A DNA stretch of 62,533 nucleotides, counting the filler, from Basidiobolus ranarum (Eukaryota), in NCBI GenBank assembly GCA_040143965.1. It is 39 parts of 39 records of this genome, joined end to end, with 100 filler letters (N's around TTAATTAATTAA, not from the genome) between each part and the next. Parts side by side here need not be neighbours in the genome. Positions count along the whole stretch, not along the records: positions 9,665 to 11,174 come from JASJQH010011844.1; 38 more parts are not named here. One strand, written 5' to 3'. The notes under the pieces were generated by a model. That model was not told the DNA's origin. It saw only the letters and a program-made list of their open reading frames with translations, and searched no databases. Of this stretch, positions 9,665 to 59,333 are shown in pieces; the stretch's first letter is position 1, and each line of letters starts with the position of its first letter. The translations under genes and the position numbers were made by a program.

Positions 9665-9976
9665 GCCTTCAGTATTCATAGCACTTTCTGGCCAGGTCTT
9701 GGCATTACCCCACCATTGGGTGTGGTAGCAGGTAAGTTGATAGTAGCGAGCATCAGCCCAATCAGTACATTGGCCATTATCAAAGCGAAACTGAAGAGGA
9801 CAGGCGTAGAGGTCTGTAAGCCCTGGGAGCTCACCATGTAAGTCAGCTACTGCAGTATTGTTCAGTGTTGAGGAGTTTATAGATTTCTCCGAAGTTGGAA
9901 GAGCTTGCACAGCCAGGCTAAAGAAGCTAGCAGCGGCCAAAATGGCACAAGACAAGATGGAGGAGGTTCTAACCAT
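9665..9976 (-). CDS. Secreted CHAP-domain protein (putative peptidoglycan amidase/peptidase), 5' fragment
   Basis: Signal peptide MVRTSSILSCAILAAASFFSLAVQA; FDNGQCTDWADARY...WWGNAKTW matches the CHAP GQCT..WGNA..W motif; TATATAA about 45 bp upstream. Confidence 0.8.
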
Positions 9977-11064
9977 TTTGATATTTGGATAATCAGACCA
10001 ACAACAATTAACGACGCTTATATATCCAAGCGTCCGTTGCAACATCCATATTTAACCAATCCTCTTAGGGTCTCCTGTTGAACCAGGCTCGAATTTCAAT
10101 CTGGATTTGGAAATTGTGGATTAGATCAAGATTCGAGCAATAGCATTCAATCGAATTTTCAATCGAATGTTCAAAAGATCTATAGTTGGCAGCTCTTAAA
10201 TATTGGTTAGCAGTTCTATGTGATTGGAAATCCGCGGGCTAACTTCAACCTATCAGAAAAATTCACTGATTCTGAAACCCTGATCCAAACCCGGTTTTCT
10301 AAAACTTACAATAATTTAGATCTAGGCTTGGAAATATCCATTTCATGGGATAATCATCTAAAGAGAGTTGTAGAGATCAGGGCAGTTACCAATCTTGATG
10401 CCATTACAACGGCCATATATATCCACATCAAATCACTGGCTTTTGCGTTAATCCTGCTTTGTTGCTAAATCAGCATTGTGGGAGAGTCAGCGGTTGATAG
10501 TAGCCATTATGGATAATGTAACGCTTACTTTGGGAATTGAATGTTAACATGAAAGGATTTATTTAAGCAATTAAGCAGGTTACGAAGTGCTCACTGCGCT
10601 TGATACCTCAAATATATTTACTACCTTAGCTCTCACAAATATATTTACTACCTTTGCTCTAATGGTTCAGGTCGGCGCTCAGTCAACAGTATGCAAGAAT
10701 GAGTTTATTATTAAACATATTCAATTCACGAGCAAAACTATAATAACAAAAAGTACTACTTGGAATTCCCAAATCTAACCCTAACCCTCTTATTTTCCAT
10801 CTAAACGGAAATAACCAAACTGATTCTATCATAAAGAGGATTGAGCTTGATCCCATTTTGAAGATCAAAGATATGATCCTTCGTTTGAGTTGTGGGTCCA
10901 ATACCCAGTTGAGCTCATATTTTATATATGTTTGTAGTTTTGGACAGATAGTTGGAAGCTTACAATGAAGGGCCTCTAGTTGATATTATTTCTAATCTGA
11001 TGTAAACTATTATCTAAAGGCAAACATATATTTATCCATGAACAAAATTTTACATACATTTCCA

Positions 11065-11174
11065 TTAAAGTATTTGGGAGCCTGTTGGAAGTGGTTTGGA
11101 GAATTAGAGGAATTGGTGGTTTTCACTTATTGATTTATTGAGTAGAAAGTTGACATTTATAGTTTTGTCAAGAT
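11065..11174 (-). repeat. LTR family A, 3' part
   Basis: TTAAAGTATTTGGGAGCCTGTTGGAAGTGG, as at 8577. Confidence 0.85.
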
Positions 11175-20927: not shown

Positions 20928-22435
20928 CTTGAAGTATATGCAGTGATCAGCTTTGCTACAATGGAAAAGATGTTTCATGAAGATCTGATTGATTTTGGTA
21001 TTCCATGCACAAGGAGCCTGTTTCAGACCATATAGACTTCTCTGTAGTTTGCATACTTGATTTTCTTTTCCTTTTGCAATATATCCCTCTGGTTGATCCA
21101 TGTATATCATCAATTTCTCCATTAAAAAATGCTATATTGACATCCATTTGTTCAATCAGCATTCCTTGGTGGGTAGCAATGGCTAGGATTACTCTGATTG
21201 AGATAAATTTAGCATTGGGAGAAAATGTTTCATCATAGTCAATGCCATATTTCTGAGCATAGCCTTTTACTACTAATCTTGCTTTGTACCAGTTGATAGA
21301 TCCATCTGAGTTAAGTTTCAGTTTCAGCAACCATCTATTACCGATAGTTTTTCTTCCAGTAGGTAAGTCCACAAGGATCCATGTGTTATTCTTGATTAGG
21401 GAGTAAATTTCATCATCAGTGGCTTTTCTCCATTCTGTCACTTCATCAGATTTCAGAGCTTGTGTCAAATTTTCTGGTTCACAAAATGCTATATGTGTAG
21501 CTCTATTCCACCCTTTTTCTGAATTGAAGCTGTTAATTTTATGCTTTGATTTGAGACATCCAAAGTCCTTGGTAGAATGGTCAGATGTTTCACTTACAGG
21601 ATATTTCTGATTTCCACTCAGTAGGATGTCTGAGACATGATTGCCTGAATTTTGTGATTGATTGAATACTTGTTGTGATTGATTGCATACTTTCAATAAT
21701 TGATGGCATCCAATATCAGCCAAATTGAGAGTAAGATATTTCTTAGGTATGTGATTGGTCAGAAAATTATTGCCTTGTTTCTGAGCCCAATTTCCTGCTT
21801 CCTGATTGGCTGGAAAAATATTCTTTTTCTGATCACCATATTTTTTATTGGCAGAGATAATATGCAGATTTCCAGAAGCCAATTCCAAATTGCTAGTATC
21901 CTCAGAGTAATTATCAGGTTTTCTGGTATAAATTGGTGCATTTCCAATGCTGCCTGATGTTTCACTACTTATATAGGTGCTTGATTCCAGAATATTATAT
22001 AATAGTTTGTTCTCCTTGGTTTCAGTACTTGTAGTGAAGTTTGAGACAGGATTATTGCTTGTCAGTTTTCTGCTAGGAATATTCACCACAGGGATTGGTA
22101 ATGATTTGAGCTTTGTCATATATTCATTGGTGGCTGATGTTTTAGATCTTGTCTCAGATGTGATATTTTCTAAATCTGGATAATGATGATAGATAATTTC
22201 AGATTCCAAATCTGGTCTAATTTGAGTATCTATTTCCAATGTATCATTTTCCAAGTTGGTTTCTGTACCTGTTAGCTCAAGATTGGTTTCAGAACTTGTT
22301 AACTCAGAATTTGAGTTATTGAGAAATTGATTTTCAGCCAAAATCAAATTCCCTTGATTAGAAGATTTGAGATTTTCTTCAATGAATATAGTATCTCTGG
22401 AGTTGATGATTTGATTTGTGCCAGCAATTAGGAGA
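20928..22435 (-). mobile_element. Copia integrase tail, linker and RVT_2 reverse transcriptase
   Basis: SRDTIFIEE, NNTWILVDLP, YKARLVVKGYAQKYGIDYDETFSP, QMDVNIAF, LYGLKQAP. Confidence 0.95.
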
Positions 22436-30572: not shown

Positions 30573-32078
30573 AAAATCTATATATCTGAGAACTTCTAAG
30601 TTGGTAAAAATATTCTAAGTAAATTCCGATTGAGAATAATTGATAATATCTTAGTGAATTATAAGATAACTAAGTACTAAGCTGTATATGACTATATAGG
30701 TGTTTAGGCAATGCTAATTTCAACAGAAATGTGGTTGTAACAGAAGATCACTTGTTCATATCTGCTCTATCTATGACATCCAACAAGGATTCTCAGATGT
30801 GGTATATTGATTCTGAAGCCTCTCAACATTTCACAAATGAAAATCATTGGTTTGTGGATTATAAAGAAAACCTAATGAGAAAAGATTTCATGGGAGATCA
30901 CTGTACATTGGATGCCTTTGGAATGGGAACAATTCAAGTAATTTTAACTGGTGCTTCTGAAGAGAAAGCAAATACTTCTAAGGATATACTACATGTTCCA
31001 GATATTGACAAGAATTTAATATCTTCAGGCAAGACCATGTTGGAAGGGCTAAAAGTCAATTTTGATAAGTCAGGATTCATCATCATTTATCAAAATGGGA
31101 AATATTTAGCTTTGGGGAAAAAGGATCAGAACTGATACACACTTACATATAATCCAAGAGGTTTATATGTAAACATAAGTTATTCCAATCTACAAACTGC
31201 TCAATTATAGCATAAGAAATTTGGCCATGTTGGATTTGATTACTTCAGCAAAGTGATCAAAAATTGCCCATTTTCTGGAATTCAAATTAATCCCCAACCA
31301 AATTAAAGATTAGTGAGGGATGGATCTATGGAAAACAAGCCAGACAATCATTCAAGGGCTTTGGTTTAATCAAATCTGTCAAAAAATTGGATCTAATTCA
31401 CTCAGATTTGTGTGGACTTACACAAAATCAATCTTAAGGTGGAAAAAGATTTTTAATCACATTTATTGATGGTTATACAAGATACACTTGGGTCTACTTT
31501 ATGCAAGGAAAAGAATAAGCTCTCTCTATCTTTAAAGATTTTGAAACACTTGTGGAGACTGAAATTATAACTAAAATCTAGGAAAACATACTGATAATGG
31601 TGGAGAATATGCTTCAACCCTATTTAAGCACTTTTGCAAAGTTCATGGAATTAAGCAAGAAACTACTGCCCCTATTCTCCTCAGCAAAACGCAGTTGCTG
31701 AAAGAGCTTATAGTACTAAAATAGAAATGGCAAGATCTATGATAAATGCACCAAATTTATCTCATAATTTTTGGGCAGAATATGTTGCCATAGCTGTATA
31801 TCTGAAGAATAGGAGTTTCACTATAAGTCTGCTTAACTCTACACAATAGCAAGCATTGTTTGGAGTTAAACCTGACATATAACATATGAGGATCTTTGGA
31901 TACATTGCTTATTTCAAAATTATGACCCAAAATCTGTTGAAATTAGCATTGCCTAAACACCTATATTGTCATATATAGCTTAGTACTTAGTTATCTTATA
32001 ATTCACTAAGATATTATCAATTATTCTCAATTGGAATTTACTCAGAATATTTTTACTAACTTAGAAGTTCTCAGATAT
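30573..32078 (+). mobile_element. Copia protease-integrase (30726-31934) bounded by two independent LTR-A ends
   Basis: WYIDSEASQH, HKKFGH, LIHSDLCG, TDNGGEY, PQQNAVAER; LTR-A inverted end at 30725 and start at 31935. Confidence 0.93.
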
Positions 32079-36995: not shown

Positions 36996-37700
36996 GCAAA
37001 GAAGGGTGCATACCCGGGCTTTGAGGGGACATATCGTAGGCATCTACGTAACCCGATGATCGAGCTTCCGATGCCAGCCGAGGACGTTATAGAGGGTGTG
37101 GATGCAGTGATCGTAAGCCATACTCACAGCGACCACTGGGACGATGTGGCTCAGGAGCTACTTCCCAAAGGCATCCCTCTGTTTGTACAGCATGAAATCG
37201 ATGCTCAAATCATTCGTGCACAGGGATTCATCAATGTTCACGTCTTGGGTGAAAACACAGTGTTTGAGGGCATCCGCTTGGAAAAGACGGGGGGACAGCA
37301 TGGTACAGACTCTATGTACTCCTCACATGTCCTTGCGGAGAAGCTTGGCGAGGTAATGGGCATTGTCTTTCAGGCACCCGGCTCGAAAACCGTATACATT
37401 GCCGGTGATACCGTGTGGAACAGCGAAGTTGATATGGCCATAGCTAAGTTCAAACCGGATGTGATCGTTCTGAATACTGGTGATGCTCGTGTGACTGGCT
37501 TCAGCGGCTCCATCATCATGGGTAAGGAGGACACACTCCATGCGTACCAAGCTGCGCCGAACGCAACTGTTGTTGCTGTGCATATGGATGCCATCAATCA
37601 TACAGCATTAAGCCGCGAGGAGCTACGAGAATATGTAAAACAGACTGGTATTCAGGATCGTGTATTAATCCCTGCTGATGGTGAAATTTTGAAGCTTTGA
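36996..37700 (+). CDS. MBL-fold metallo-hydrolase (bacterial UlaG/YddR-like, Lactamase_B_2/3), 5' truncated
   Basis: Open from contig start AKKGAYPGFEG; SHTHSDHWD, YIAGDT, VAVHMDAINH; no introns. Confidence 0.92.
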   Translation, partial: AKKGAYPGFEGTYRRHLRNPMIELPMPAEDVIEGVDAVIVSHTHSDHWDDVAQELLPKGIPLFVQHEIDAQIIRAQGFINVHVLGENTVFEGIRLEKTGGQHGTDSMYSSHVLAEKLGEVMGIVFQAPGSKTVYIAGDTVWNSEVDMAIAKFKPDVIVLNTGDARVTGFSGSIIMGKEDTLHAYQAAPNATVVAVHMDAINHTALSREELREYVKQTGIQDRVLIPADGEILKL

Positions 37701-42129: not shown

Positions 42130-43313
42130 CATCAGAGATCATTTAATTTAAAAAATATCAGTTTCATTGAGCATAACATCCCTGTACTTGATTAACTTGG
42201 AAATATGGTATCATAGACTCTGTAGGTCTCAGTTAGAGCACAATAACCCAGAAATATGCATTCCTTATAGTTTTTGTCAAATTTAGACTAATATTTGGTC
42301 ATAATTTTGACATAATCAATTCATCCACTGACCCTCAAGCATTTTACATTGGGTTAACTCCAAGCTAAGCTTGATATGGTGTAGAGTTAGACAGACTGCT
42401 TAAAAGCTTCAATTCTTTAGATATTCAGCTGTAGCAACCAATTCCACCCAAAACTTATGAGATAAGTTTTCTGCATTTATCTTAGATTTTGCCATCTCTG
42501 TTATAGTCCTGTTAGCACTTCCAGCAACTTCATTTTGTTAAGGTGAATCAGAAGCACTAGTTTCTTGCTTAATTGCTTGAACTTTGCAAAAATGCCTAAA
42601 AAGTGTTGAAGTGTATTCCCCACTATTATGCATACTTAGCTTCTTTACTTTAGTTCCAGTTTCAGTCGCCACAAGTGTTTTAAAATCCCTATAGATAGAG
42701 AGAGCCTCCTCTTTTCTGTCCACAAAGTAGACCCAAGTGTATCTTGTGTAATCATCAATAAATGTGATTAATATCTTTTTCTTTGTAAGCATAAATTTTG
42801 CATAGATCCACACATTTCTGAACAAATTAGATCCAATTTTTTGACAAATTTGATTAAACAAGGTCTCTTAAATGGTTGCCTGGCTTGTTTTCCATATATA
42901 AAACCCTCACAAATTTCCATTTTGGTTGGGGGGTTAATTTGAATTCTAGAAATTAAATAATTTTTGATCATTTTGCTCAAATAAGCAAGTCCAATATGGC
43001 CAAATCTCTTATGCCATGATTGAATGATTTCTTGATTGGAATGACTTTTATTTACACGTAAACCTCTTGGATTATATGTAAGTTGGTATAGGTTCTGGTC
43101 CTTTTCTCCCAGAGCTAAATAATGGCCATTTTGAGCAGTCATGATGCTTCTTGACTTATCAAAATTGAATTTAGCCCTTCTGTGATGGCCTTGCATACAA
43201 ATATTGAATTCTTGGCAATATCTGGAACATGTAGTACATCTTTGAAAGTATATACTTTCTCTTCAGTAGCTCCAGTTGAATTGACTTCACCTGTTCCCAT
43301 TCCAATATCATCC
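42130..43313 (-). mobile_element. Copia GAG-pre-integrase and integrase (decayed)
   Basis: WHKRFGH, CEGFIYGKQAR, FIDDYTRYTWVYF, NSGEY. Confidence 0.92.
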
Positions 43314-48599: not shown

Positions 48600-49130
48600 G
48601 GACTGTGATTCAAGGTGAAAATTTTGAATTTTGTTAAATATCACATGAATGCACTTAATAAACTTCTAAGTTTTGGTAACAAACAGTTTGTAGGCCTTTG
48701 ATCCATCCCAGTAACCAAGAAATATGCCTTTTTGGCTTTTAGGCTCCAATTTAGAGCATTTTTGAGCTAGATTTTGGCAAAATGCTGAGCATCCAACAAT
48801 CCTGTGATGATCCACACTTGGTTTTGATCCATATAGGGCTTCAAATGGAGTAGACTTTTGTAGCAATCTTGTTGGGAACCAGTTTTTCATATAGACCCCA
48901 GTGGAGACAGATTCATACCAGTATTAGAAATCTAACTTTTGATCATATAACATTGTTCCAGCCATCTCCACTATGGTCCTATTATCACATTCTGCAACTC
49001 ATTTTGCTGAGGAGGATAATGTACAGGAGTTTGCTGCTTAATTTGATGTATAGAACAAAATTAACAAAGTCTTTAGAGCAATATTTTCCACTATTATCAC
49101 TCCCCAGTACCCTCATTTTTTGTACTGATT
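48600..49130 (-). mobile_element. Copia integrase C-terminal region
   Basis: SDNSGKY, TPFEALYGSKP, KLEPKSQKGIFLGY. Confidence 0.88.
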
Positions 49131-49174
49131 CTTTCACCAATACATACAATGATATTAGCTTTAATAAAATATTC

Positions 49175-49726
49175 ACCCATCTGAACCCCTTTAGATAACC
49201 ATTCAAATACTGCAATCAAAGGCTCCAAGAAGCTATCTATAAGCACTGGTGATTTAGGTCCAGATATGATGGATAGTATCAAAATATTATGACTCTTATA
49301 CCATTCAGAAGGAGGAAGATTTAAGTTGATTAAAATTATTGGCCAGCAAGCCTTTCCAATGGTATATTTGTTTAGTAAGAAACCATCCAGAGCCAATGCA
49401 AATGCATGATCATATGTGTTCTCAAAGAAACCTTGACTTTTCAGATTCTGGTAGTGATATCCATCAAGTATATCAGTAATACCATCAGCTTTATGGTGAG
49501 TACTTTGGTATTGGATCAATGATCTATATTTGGGTGATTTCATCAAAACTCTGAGATGGGTAATTAATGGTATGTAAGCTGAATATGAACAATATTTACC
49601 TGATTCAGCGATTGCCAATTGTGTGGAAACAGTACATGACTTCAGGTTTTTCAGATCACCGGTGAAAGCCAAACAACCATTTGGACATGAAGGCAGTTTA
49701 ATTACTGAAGGATTATAAGTCATACA
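49175..49726 (-). mobile_element. CMC Transposase_21 (TnpD-like) core
   Basis: CPNGCLAF, YIPL, DILDG, LALDGF, WPIILINLNLPP, GPKSP, SFLEPL; also at 46340-46520. Confidence 0.92.
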
Positions 49727-57177: not shown

Positions 57178-57732
57178 CTAAGAATGATATACAAACGTAG
57201 CGACAAATATTCCATAGAATTGCTGAGCAATTATCATGCCAGTAAAAGCTATCAGGCCACCAAGCAAGCCGCTTTGGAGATTAAAGCTGAAGGACGTTGT
57301 TTGAGGAGCATGTAGGCCAAAAGAGTTGGGGATATCGGAGTCATCCTTTGTATAATATTTGGCAAAGAAGTCATTCTGTAGCCGCAGAACTTTATTAAAT
57401 GCCAAAACAACTCGAAGCTCGTATTCTCTCTCTAGTTTTAGTGTGCTTACTGCCCAAATCAAAGTGGATTCAACAAAATCAAGAAGAGCAGAAATATGGA
57501 TGTATTCTACACTAATCTTGGACTTCTTTCCGGGGATATCAGTGTGAATCTTTGCAACCCAATCCAGGTATTTGCTCATATGCTCATCATAAGGGTTTAT
57601 CAAGAGACGACTAATAGAGCACGTCAACACATCCTTTCGATACTTTATCTGCGAGCTATTCACATCAAGTTCACAAATGTCCTCAACAATCTTCCCGGCA
57701 TAATCTTCGTGGCGAGTAGCCATGGTTTGCCA
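57178..57732 (-). CDS. Fungal protoglobin (globin-sensor) domain protein, 5' truncated, hydrophobic C-terminal tail
   Basis: QIKYRKD, YLDWVAKIHT, VEYIHISALLDFVE, AFNKVLRLQNDFFAKYY. Confidence 0.8.
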   Translation of the reverse strand, partial: WQTMATRHEDYAGKIVEDICELDVNSSQIKYRKDVLTCSISRLLINPYDEHMSKYLDWVAKIHTDIPGKKSKISVEYIHISALLDFVESTLIWAVSTLKLEREYELRVVLAFNKVLRLQNDFFAKYYTKDDSDIPNSFGLHAPQTTSFSFNLQSGLLGGLIAFTGMIIAQQFYGIFVATFVYHS

Positions 57733-57843: not shown

Positions 57844-58160
57844 TGTTGGATAATTAATCTTTATTCAACATCTTAGTTAACTTTAGTTATGATACATATA
57901 TCAGAAACAGAAAGCAACGTATCTATAGCCCCTATATTCTAAAGAGGAATATCTCTATATCTATATAACAAGTATGTCTTATTATCCCCGCTTATCTATT
58001 ATATCTTATTACACAAACTCCTGAATATCTCAGACAATTGATTTACTCTTCTACTATATAAGTCACCATATACTCTTAAGAATAAACTAACTAAAACACA
58101 CTATCATCAGTGGCTTCTAATACTCAAAGTCTAACCCCATTATGTCAAGATCCTCCAACA
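57844..58160 (+). repeat. Complete LTR family D (317 bp) preceded by a PPT
   Basis: AAGGGAAGG|TGTTGGA...TCCAACA. Confidence 0.88.
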
Positions 58161-58820
58161 AATTATGTATTTGGTAGACTTCTGGATGAAGATTCATGCA
58201 AATCAAGACTCAACCAAAAGAATGAAGAAAATGCTTTTATAAGCTATGGGAAACCTTCCTATTCAAGTCAAAAGTGCCTTAAGAAGAAAAGTAACACATT
58301 CTGTGATTACTGTAAAAGAACTGGCCATATGAGCAAAGATTGCTTTAAAAGAATTGCAAAAGAAAAATGTACTGAATCTGGAAATGTGGTTACAACAGAA
58401 GATCACTTGTTCATATCTGCTCTATCTATGACTATCAACAAGGATTCTCAGACATGGTGTATTGGTTCTGGAGCTTCCCAACATTTCACCAATGAAAAAC
58501 ATTGGTTTGTGGAATATGAAGAAATCCCAATTAGAAAGGTTTTCATGGGAGATGACCGCACATTGGACTCTATTGGAATGGGAACAATTCAAGTCAATTT
58601 AACTGGAGCTTCTGAAGAGAAAGTATATACTTTGAAGAATGTACTGCATGTTCCAGATATTGCCAATATCTTAATATCCATATGCAAGGCCACCTCAGAA
58701 TGGCCAAAATTCAATTTTGATAAGTCAGGATGCACCATCACTGATCAAAATGGGAATTATTTAGCTCCGGGAGAAAAGTATCAAAACTTATACAAACTTA
58801 CATATAATCCAAGAGGTTTA
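58161..58820 (+). mobile_element. Copia gag knuckle and protease
   Basis: CDYCKRTGHMSKDC; WCIGSGASQH; LKNVLHVP. Confidence 0.92.
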
Positions 58821-58822
58821 AA

Positions 58823-59333
58823 GTGTGTGAAATCTGTCCCAAAATCCCCTTGATTTTAGCAAATTGTAAAAAAACCAGAAACCAAGCATTACTTTGAATG
58901 TTCTTGACTTATTTCATGTGGGTTATCTGGGGTTTTGCAAGCAAATGGCAATTGGGCTAGTATAGACCTATTCATGAAACATCTCATAAATGTATGCAAT
59001 TATTGACTTGGAAATGAAAGAAAAGCAGCTAAAGAAGTACTCAAGCAGCAGGAAGTTGCTAAACCAAATCAAAAAGCAAAGGAGCTAGTAAATTTAAGTG
59101 CTACTATCCCACTTACCAAATTCTTCACACCATTACACAGATATGTATTTGCCAAGTTAGATATCCTGGCAAAAAACTTAATTTTACCATTTAACCTGGT
59201 ACACCAGTTGGAAGAGTGCTAAATTTGGAAGTTTCTCCAACACCTGGCACCTCTCAACAAGCCAAAACACCAGCAAATAGAACTCAAGGCTCTCCTACCT
59301 CAACTGATACTTTTCAAAGTTCTGAAACTAGCC
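58823..59333 (+). mobile_element. CMC ORF2 middle part
   Basis: Overlaps 52720-52929 and 13860-14183 (inverted). Confidence 0.72.

Follow-up and report, generated by a model that had tools for sequence, protein, structure and literature searches.

How does a fungus come to carry a gene for a CHAP-domain protein, and what might such a protein do there? CHAP is typically a domain of bacteria and phages, and fungi have no peptidoglycan. The question is raised by a locus in a 62,533-base stretch of Basidiobolus ranarum DNA (assembly GCA_040143965.1; hereafter the window), which is composed of 39 contigs of 1500–1512 nucleotides (nt) each, ordered by length and separated by 38 spacers of the form N50-TTAATTAATTAA-N50. 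The 39 contigs are unrelated, and any feature or 'neighbourhood' that crosses a spacer is an artefact. Contig 7 (window positions 9665–11174, 1510 nt) carries one end of a gene that an initial reading of the DNA, made from its letters alone (the sequence-only reading), had taken for a horizontally acquired antibacterial hydrolase. Our analysis indicates that this is probably the 5′ part of a nuclear Basidiobolus gene encoding a secreted, single-domain CHAP hydrolase, which entered the lineage by an old transfer from a Ktedonobacteria-like bacterium and would cleave peptidoglycan.

The gene lies on the minus strand, as do all of its parts given here. The ATG at 9976–9974 is followed by an open frame of 104 codons that meets neither a stop nor an intron before the contig breaks off at 9665. 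These codons (9665–9976) are the first 104 of an expected ~179 in a gene whose product would be a secreted protein with CHAP (MEROPS peptidase family C51) as its only domain. Compared with the 179-residue protein B. ranarum K7432_004553 (P0028), the fragment represents the first 58% of the gene, and the 75 absent residues include the histidine of the GHVAVVE motif. Residues 1–25 (MVRTSSILSCAILAAASFFSLAVQA, 9902–9976) form a signal-peptide-like N-terminus, in which inspection reveals a basic n-region, a hydrophobic core, and small residues at −3 and −1. Cleavage is likely to fall between VQA and LP, and the '..QALP / ..ALP' context recurs near the start of many paralogs. The following 33-residue linker (LPTSEKSINSSTLNNTAVADLHGELPGLTDLYA, 9803–9901) contains two N-x-S/T sequons and is poorly conserved in the alignment of paralogs; in the AlphaFold2 (AF2) model of the ortholog, residues 31–60 have predicted local distance difference test (pLDDT) values of 44–62. 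Residues 59–104 (CPLQFRFDNGQCTDWADARYYQLTCYHTQWWGNAKTWPESAMNTEG, 9665–9802) are the N-terminal 46 residues of the CHAP domain, among which residues 66–99 (9680–9781) are matched by Pfam, and the codon TGT at 9767–9769 encodes the predicted nucleophile Cys70 in the motif NGQCTDWA. The signal-peptide-like start and the short spacer are present as the sequence-only reading described them. Its placement of the catalytic histidine beyond the contig end is likewise borne out.

Searched alone, the fragment matches only one Pfam family, CHAP (PF05257), with an E-value of 0.019 and a score of 15.9 bits over positions 7–34 of the 81-position hidden Markov model (HMM). The score is below the Pfam CHAP cut-off of 26 bits because only these HMM positions are on the contig, so that the CHAP call depends on P0028 and P0002, orthologs of full length with scores of 61.4 and 56.4 bits, respectively. 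The CHAP domain named by the sequence-only reading is thus below the cut-off in the HMM search of the fragment but found in P0028 and in 38 of 38 aligned fungal relatives, for all of which it is the sole Pfam family. Furthermore, every family-invariant column that falls in the fragment is kept (G68, C70, T71, W73, A74, R77, Y78, L81, W88, G90, A92, W95 and A99). Specifically, Cys70 is present in 38 of 38 fungal members and aligns with the GQCT of the Staphylococcus saprophyticus CHAP structure 2K3A, and a helix starts at residue 69, next to Cys70, in the AF2 model of P0028. His131, in the motif GHVAVVE in the ortholog, is kept in 37 of 38 members; Asn150 is present in 37 of 37 covering rows; and position 148 is Asn in 30 and Asp in 7 of 37 rows. 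Positions 148 and 150 of the relatives align with S-E-M-N of 2K3A. The subclade of the window copy has gained cysteines at three further positions, 59, 83 and 126 (12–13 of 38 members). The sole member with Tyr at the histidine position, P0010 (B. ranarum K7432_012594), reads DGYVAVVE, and its deposited model has no signal-peptide-like start; possible explanations are a pseudoenzyme, a pseudogene or an error in the gene model.

In BLASTP, residues 1–104 of the fragment align without gaps to residues 1–104 of P0028 at 86.5% identity, while the B. meristosporus counterparts P0029 and P0030 are 66.7% and 67.0% identical over the whole fragment. By these similarities, the window gene is an ortholog of B. 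ranarum K7432_004553, and of the two species B. ranarum is the closer; a divergence of 13.5% from P0028 means that the copy comes from another strain or species or is a close paralog. K7432_004553 and, in B. meristosporus CBS 931.73, K493DRAFT_389982 and K493DRAFT_299142 have the architecture and part order of the window copy, signal peptide included, and share with it the extra cysteines 59 and 83. Unlike K7432_004553, the window copy ends at residue 104, owing to the contig end. The Basidiobolus orthologs are already deposited, under automatic names only: K7432_004553 is entered as a hypothetical protein, and the UniRef name is 'Peptidase C51 domain-containing protein'.

The abrupt end of the fragment raises the alternative that the window copy is a truncated or decaying paralog, either a pseudogene or a gene disrupted by inserted DNA, and not an intact gene broken by the assembly. 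In keeping with decay, the contig ends inside the gene, transposon remnants dominate the surrounding assembly, and the family includes partial or degenerate members (P0010, P0052 and P0053). A tblastn search of P0002 against the 39 contigs found the remainder of the gene on 0 of the other 38 (next match, E = 1.5), and the recovery of the 3′ end that the sequence-only reading had called for thus failed within the window. Against this, the 104 codons are open, align to the ortholog at 86.5% identity without gaps, and keep all invariant columns of this part, and, with all 39 contigs being ~1.5 kb long, breaks are the rule in this assembly; the ~21 similar genes would be a likely cause of the break. 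We regard a decaying copy as improbable and favor an intact gene, whose 3′ part would continue off the contig as in K7432_004553.

The CHAP gene resides, as judged from its relatives and its surroundings, in the fungal genome. The coding part has a guanine-plus-cytosine (GC) content of 0.484, compared with 0.353 for the rest of contig 7 (9977–11174, repeat included), and the mean gene GC published for B. meristosporus is 0.4865 (PMC7466969). Upstream of the gene there is an AT-rich flank (9977–11064) in which Pfam, Rfam and tRNA scans reveal no recognisable gene: none of the five open frames of 57–100 codons in the rest of the contig reaches the Pfam cut-off, and the search for RNA genes in the same region was negative for both Rfam families and tRNAs. 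At its far end, contig 7 breaks off after the initial ~110 nt of a dispersed repeat (11065–11174, plus strand), which matches 7 of the 38 other contigs (32, 4, 6, 29, 19, 24 and 36) at 85–100% identity. Eukaryotic transposon domains on other contigs of the window also speak for fungal residence. The aligned copies are ~350 nt long, and most of the other copies start with TGTTAAAG. The sequence-only reading had called this element a host long terminal repeat (LTR); it is a real repeat, common to seven other contigs, for which LTR identity is plausible.

A bacterial contaminant in the fungal assembly would account for the typically bacterial and phage domain, for a contig of just 1.5 kb, and for the lack of an intron in the visible part of the gene. 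Several observations make this explanation extremely unlikely. The best match of the fragment is a Basidiobolus protein at 86.5% identity, compared with at most 58% for P0028 against the best 66 prokaryote loci (see below); the signal-peptide-like N-terminus is of the eukaryotic type and is shared with the fungal orthologs, where the bacterial forms carry a long region with a membrane segment; and homologs occur on fungal scaffolds of up to 268 kb. The ~1.1 kb of gene-free AT-rich flank and the repeat shared with seven contigs of the same assembly also argue against contamination, in agreement with the sequence-only reading, which had cited the repeat on this point. On the 1.5-kb contig itself, these two features make up the whole physical link of the gene to host DNA.

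The window gene belongs to a large Basidiobolus family. A phmmer search of the fragment against 1.84 billion cluster representatives returned 20 hits at E ≤ 0.001, 19 of which were looked up: 12 are from Basidiobolus (nine B. ranarum and three B. meristosporus), one is a partial protein of Massospora cicadina, two are from metagenome-assembled genomes (MAGs) of Ktedonobacteria (Dictyobacter and Ktedonobacteraceae), and two are unnamed. Two further hits, P0015 and P0016, match the linker in six stretches each; one is in a cluster that includes a Durusdinium protein, and the other is from Phytophthora. Both were treated as low-complexity or repeat matches and omitted from the tree described below, as was P0019, a seven-stretch match. 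Among longer proteins, a restricted search retrieved one relative, B. ranarum K7432_013800 (P0002, 219 residues), which is 60% identical and whose CHAP domain is complete. When P0002 was used for a domain search, 88 of 90 candidates were hits, comprising 35 from Basidiobolus, followed by 53 bacterial or metagenomic proteins at 49–58% identity. When 4525 candidates were searched with a profile of the 38 fungal members, 431 reached E ≤ 1e-5; the best 120 of the 431 include 41 Basidiobolus proteins (21 from B. meristosporus CBS 931.73 and 20 from B. ranarum), and none of the other 79 of these 120 bears the name of a eukaryote. P0010, found by phmmer, raises the B. ranarum count to 21, so that the two species have about 21 CHAP paralogs per genome.

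The genomic arrangement of the paralogs is partly in tandem. Three B. ranarum paralogs (K7432_005993, 005994 and 005995) are adjacent on one 19-kb contig, three B. meristosporus paralogs (K493DRAFT_302510, 302513 and 302515) are adjacent on one 122-kb scaffold, and fungal scaffolds of 83–268 kb carry several homologs each. Two variations of the architecture were observed among the paralogs. In P0002, residues ~176–219, after CHAP, comprise a Ser/Thr/Asn-rich stretch and a hydrophobic C-terminal tail that resembles a glycosylphosphatidylinositol (GPI)-anchor signal, and at least this family member may be placed on the fungal surface rather than released. The subclade of P0008, P0035, P0037 and P0047 has a Cys-rich module (CP.GNGLYCG...) between signal peptide and CHAP; this module, to which Pfam assigns no family, might serve in binding.

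The nearest non-fungal relatives found are CHAP proteins of Ktedonobacteria. A scan of one genome per species across 185,579 prokaryote species matched at least 602 stretches, at least 268 of which encode relatives, and the best 80 of these relatives collapse to 66 loci. All 66 are from Chloroflexota and are 38–58% identical to P0028; 51 are named to Ktedonobacteria (Thermogemmatispora, Dictyobacter, Tengunoibacter, Ktedonosporobacter, Ktedonobacter, MAGs of Ktedonobacteraceae or Ktedonobacterales, and strain brp13), and the remaining 15 are labelled 'uncultured Chloroflexia' or 'Chloroflexota bacterium'. The Ktedonobacteria proteins, annotated by JGI as 'surface antigen', share with the fungal proteins the motifs GQCT(D/Y)WA..RY, GHVAVVE, TS(N/D)xN and a C-terminal GVSF(I/V)W(H/K). 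They differ in architecture: in the alignment, the Ktedonobacteria forms run to 280–370 residues, and their CHAP domain, at the C-terminus, is preceded by a long stretch that includes a hydrophobic membrane segment, whereas the fungal forms have a signal peptide and a linker in that place. The extra cysteines of the window subclade are missing in the Ktedonobacteria forms.

A tree of 113 rows was computed by a quick IQ-TREE search under LG+C20+F+G4, with support from the Shimodaira–Hasegawa-like approximate likelihood-ratio test (SH-aLRT). The rows were the window copy, 20 B. ranarum, 19 B. meristosporus, Massospora, 57 metagenomic or MAG proteins, and 15 proteins translated from named loci; P0001 (a duplicate of the window copy), P0015, P0016 and P0019 (not CHAP), and the cluster mates P0023–P0027 were left out. 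One branch with an SH-aLRT of 100 splits the tree into 41 of 41 fungal rows and 72 of 72 bacterial rows. The window row is sister to P0028 (SH-aLRT 93), inside Basidiobolus clades of 5 and 15 rows that are starred in the tree. At least six pairs of B. ranarum and B. meristosporus rows are starred, indicating that most duplications are older than the split of these two species. The row of the entomophthoralean fungus Massospora cicadina (P0018), a partial protein of 111 residues from a 188-kb contig, falls within the fungal clade with a branch length of 1.37; if this CHAP fragment is real, the transfer predates Basidiobolus.

The single fungal group in the tree is consistent with one transfer, and because the family is widespread in bacteria but very narrowly distributed in eukaryotes, the transfer is taken to have gone from bacterium to fungus. 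A horizontal origin of the Basidiobolus CHAP family from bacteria is well supported by the sequence comparisons. The sequence-only reading had proposed horizontal acquisition and had asked for a phylogeny against bacterial CHAP proteins; in the phylogeny as run, fungal and bacterial rows lie on opposite sides of a fully supported branch, and the 66 best prokaryote loci are all from Chloroflexota, mainly Ktedonobacteria.

The structural model of the ortholog bears on what the protein would do. The AF2 model of P0028, built from a 67-sequence alignment, has a mean pLDDT of 81.8, with values of 87–98 across residues 61–179. A Foldseek search of this model against the PDB gave 17 matches at E ≤ 0.001, all of which are CHAP peptidoglycan hydrolases, including the Staphylococcus aureus amidase 5T1Q, the phage phi812 hub CHAP, 2K3A, LysGH15, LysK CHAPk, PcsB and PlyGRCS; glutathionylspermidine amidase is a far weaker match (E about 0.02). 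In the model of P0028, as distinct from the fragment itself, the predicted fold is papain-like alpha+beta, the fold of 2K3A, 2LRJ, 5T1Q, 9EUM (phi812 hub CHAP), 4OLK (LysGH15), 4CSH (LysK CHAPk) and 4CGK (PcsB). In particular, the Cys, His and Glu/Asp-x-Asn positions align with those of staphylococcal SsaA-type CHAP proteins and lysins (Foldseek E of 5e-7 to 1e-4), and in the sequence match to 2K3A (E = 2e-9), GQCT, GHVA.VE and S-(E/D)-x-N are aligned. The solved CHAP structures, however, are only 17–31% identical and come from bacteria or phages, in many cases with wall-binding domains in addition; Pfam sees none of these extra domains in the fungal proteins, 38 of 38 having CHAP only. On the strength of these matches, we read the product as a putative secreted cysteine hydrolase of bacterial peptidoglycan, either an amidase or an endopeptidase.

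A co-opted CHAP domain that processes proteins of the fungus's own wall or surface, acts on some other amide substrate, or senses peptidoglycan fragments instead of lysing bacteria is an unlikely alternative. It would suit a fungus, as an organism that makes no peptidoglycan, and CHAP domains do act on non-peptidoglycan amides, glutathionylspermidine amidase being among the fold matches. The GPI-anchor-like tail of P0002 would put that protein on the fungal surface, and the three extra cysteines of the window subclade (59, 83 and 126) and the lack of the histidine in P0010 point in the same direction. Every fold match at E ≤ 0.001 is nevertheless a peptidoglycan hydrolase, with glutathionylspermidine amidase far behind; the catalytic residues are kept in 37–38 of 38 paralogs; and the bacterial proteins nearest to the family, CHAP proteins named 'surface antigen', are membrane-anchored and extracytoplasmic.

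We favor peptidoglycan cleavage and propose the following course of events. A membrane-anchored CHAP gene of a Ktedonobacteria-like bacterium (Chloroflexota) would have passed once, long ago, into the Basidiobolus lineage, where its cytoplasmic-plus-transmembrane N-terminus would have been swapped for a eukaryotic signal peptide and the gene would then have multiplied, partly in tandem. The protein of ~179 residues, comprising a signal peptide, a short linker and one CHAP domain, would be secreted, with Cys70 as the nucleophile paired with His131, Asp/Asn148 and Asn150 (residues as in the orthologs). This catalytic set could cleave amide bonds of bacterial peptidoglycan, either in the stem peptide or between N-acetylmuramic acid and L-alanine (MurNAc-L-Ala), and cleavage would serve antagonism against, or feeding on, bacteria of soil, dung and guts. 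The CHAP identity, fungal residence and horizontal origin put forward by the sequence-only reading hold up; the 'secreted bacteriolytic effector' that it also named is a suggestion drawn from the signal-peptide-like start and the fold likeness to peptidoglycan hydrolases.

Several points weigh against this account. The fragment by itself scores below the Pfam cut-off (15.9 versus 26 bits) and does not contain the histidine and the third catalytic residue, so that the copy could be broken downstream, and P0010, with Tyr for the catalytic histidine, shows that not every copy need be an enzyme. The DNA patterns used for the prokaryote scan were derived from the same subfamily, and lower-ranked relatives in other phyla are possible. 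The tree comes from a quick search with SH-aLRT as its only support and has no outgroup, and it gives a fungal and a bacterial group side by side, not a fungal group nested within Ktedonobacteria; the placement of its short, long-branched Massospora row is unsure. Finally, we found no publication on the activity of this CHAP subfamily, bacterial or fungal.

The literature on Basidiobolus covers gene transfer from bacteria at the genome scale. PMC7466969 reports 806 candidates for horizontal gene transfer (HGT) in B. meristosporus, which may already include these CHAP genes, and its Table 3 gives 'GNS bacteria' as the best-hit taxon of one gene resembling those of nonribosomal peptide synthetases (NRPS-like). 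Work on Basidiobolus and gut bacteria centers on secondary metabolites gained by HGT (PMC7466969 and PMC10964425), and the word 'peptidoglycan' is absent from the main texts of both. We found no publication joining 'CHAP domain' and 'Basidiobolus', and, among the papers listed on Ktedonobacter, HGT and fungi, nothing on this CHAP family. In the survey of HGT in early-diverging fungi PMC11291939, the terms CHAP, peptidoglycan, lysozyme and NlpC occur zero times. The matches to 'chap' in the retrieved text of PMC8778642 belong to a sentence on 'chaperones' and to a journal title in the references and were set aside.

The closest published parallel is from an oomycete. Saprolegnia parasitica is described as having seven secreted CHAP genes, for example SPRG_15528, and its authors judge the family to have come from bacteria and to have grown through repeated rounds of duplication (Jiang et al. 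2013, PMC3681718), a history like the one proposed here for Basidiobolus. Saprolegnia is in a different eukaryotic kingdom and presumably represents an independent transfer, and the likeness drawn here is one of description; no Saprolegnia protein is among the phmmer, domain-search or profile hits that were looked up or listed. Other bacterial wall-cutting enzymes have likewise been domesticated by eukaryotes that live among bacteria. The tick protein Dae2, for instance, is a peptidoglycan hydrolase of the bacterial Tae family that was acquired by a eukaryote. The same logic applies to the eukaryotic GH25 lysozymes of bacterial origin (Metcalf et al. 2014, PMC4241558) and to the NlpC/P60 proteins of Trichomonas (PMC10461829). 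GH25, NlpC/P60 and Tae are different enzyme families, with antibacterial activity reported by the respective authors, whereas for the Basidiobolus CHAP proteins such activity is a prediction.

The window gene is thus another member of a deposited yet undescribed family, in a setting where HGT into Basidiobolus and secreted CHAP proteins in Saprolegnia are already published. Being an incomplete copy with deposited relatives, it adds little by itself; the points that may be noteworthy are how large the family is, its descent from a single Ktedonobacteria-like source, and the replacement of a membrane anchor by a signal peptide. More tentatively, Basidiobolus could possess ~20 secreted bacteriolytic CHAP enzymes derived from a single Ktedonobacteria gene, with which the fungus would kill bacteria or digest them and thereby influence the gut microbiota of reptiles and amphibians. 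In such a battery, an arsenal beyond the known small molecules for which we hold somewhat less than even confidence, the anchor would have been swapped for a signal peptide, and some copies would have gained disulfides, Cys-rich modules or a GPI-like tail. About 20 secreted enzymes with a peptidoglycan-hydrolase fold would add antagonism or bacterivory at the protein level, and the family would offer a clean case of change after transfer (anchor to signal peptide, large tandem expansion, added cysteines). Small single-domain lysins may also be of practical interest.

The remaining features of contig 7 are minor. A TATATAA motif at 10018–10024 (minus strand), −48 to −42 from the ATG, was read as a eukaryotic TATA box by the sequence-only reading. 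The motif is there and its position is compatible with a promoter, but TATATAA occurs 25 times in the window compared with 23 expected by chance, making it uninformative as promoter evidence and at most suggestive. An OMP_b-brl_2 match in the rest of the contig is at chance level (16.9 bits against a cut-off of 26) and was rejected. The flank contains two tandem duplications, a 27-nt unit repeated 1.9 times (10609–10660) and a 12-nt unit repeated 2.4 times (10146–10174).

Elsewhere in the window, contigs 24 and 36 combine sequence of the contig-7 repeat with a protein-coding frame. Contig 24 has a copy of the repeat at its positions 1068–1175 and a metallo-beta-lactamase-fold frame at window positions 36996–37697 (plus strand; Lactamase_B_2, 52.4 bits), which ties a likely host gene to the repeat family. 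In contig 36, the first 24 nt match the end of the repeat, and a Protoglobin frame (PF11563, 59.7 bits) lies at 57181–57732 (minus strand); Protoglobin is a globin type found mainly in archaea and bacteria. On contig 25, one frame spans the whole contig (38601–40103, plus strand) and encodes the dimerisation (Alkyl_sulf_dimr, 196.8 bits) and C-terminal (Alkyl_sulf_C, 73.5 bits) domains of an alkyl sulfatase; this protein, a bacterial-type enzyme on the contig with the highest GC content in the window (0.477), is either a second HGT candidate or a contaminant. Transposon remnants are located at 20959–22434 (minus), 42771–43262 (minus), 58095–58850 (plus), 30692–31132 (plus) and 49100–49726 (minus), and the transposon domains on these other contigs include a Ty1/copia RVT_2, a gag-pre-integrase, two Pol beta-barrels and a fragment of Transposase_21 (tnp2). 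Repeats are common to most contigs of the window, and contig ends often overlap other contigs by ~110 nt at 96–99% identity (for example, contigs 7 and 32, and contigs 32 and 3), the pattern expected from breaks at repeats.

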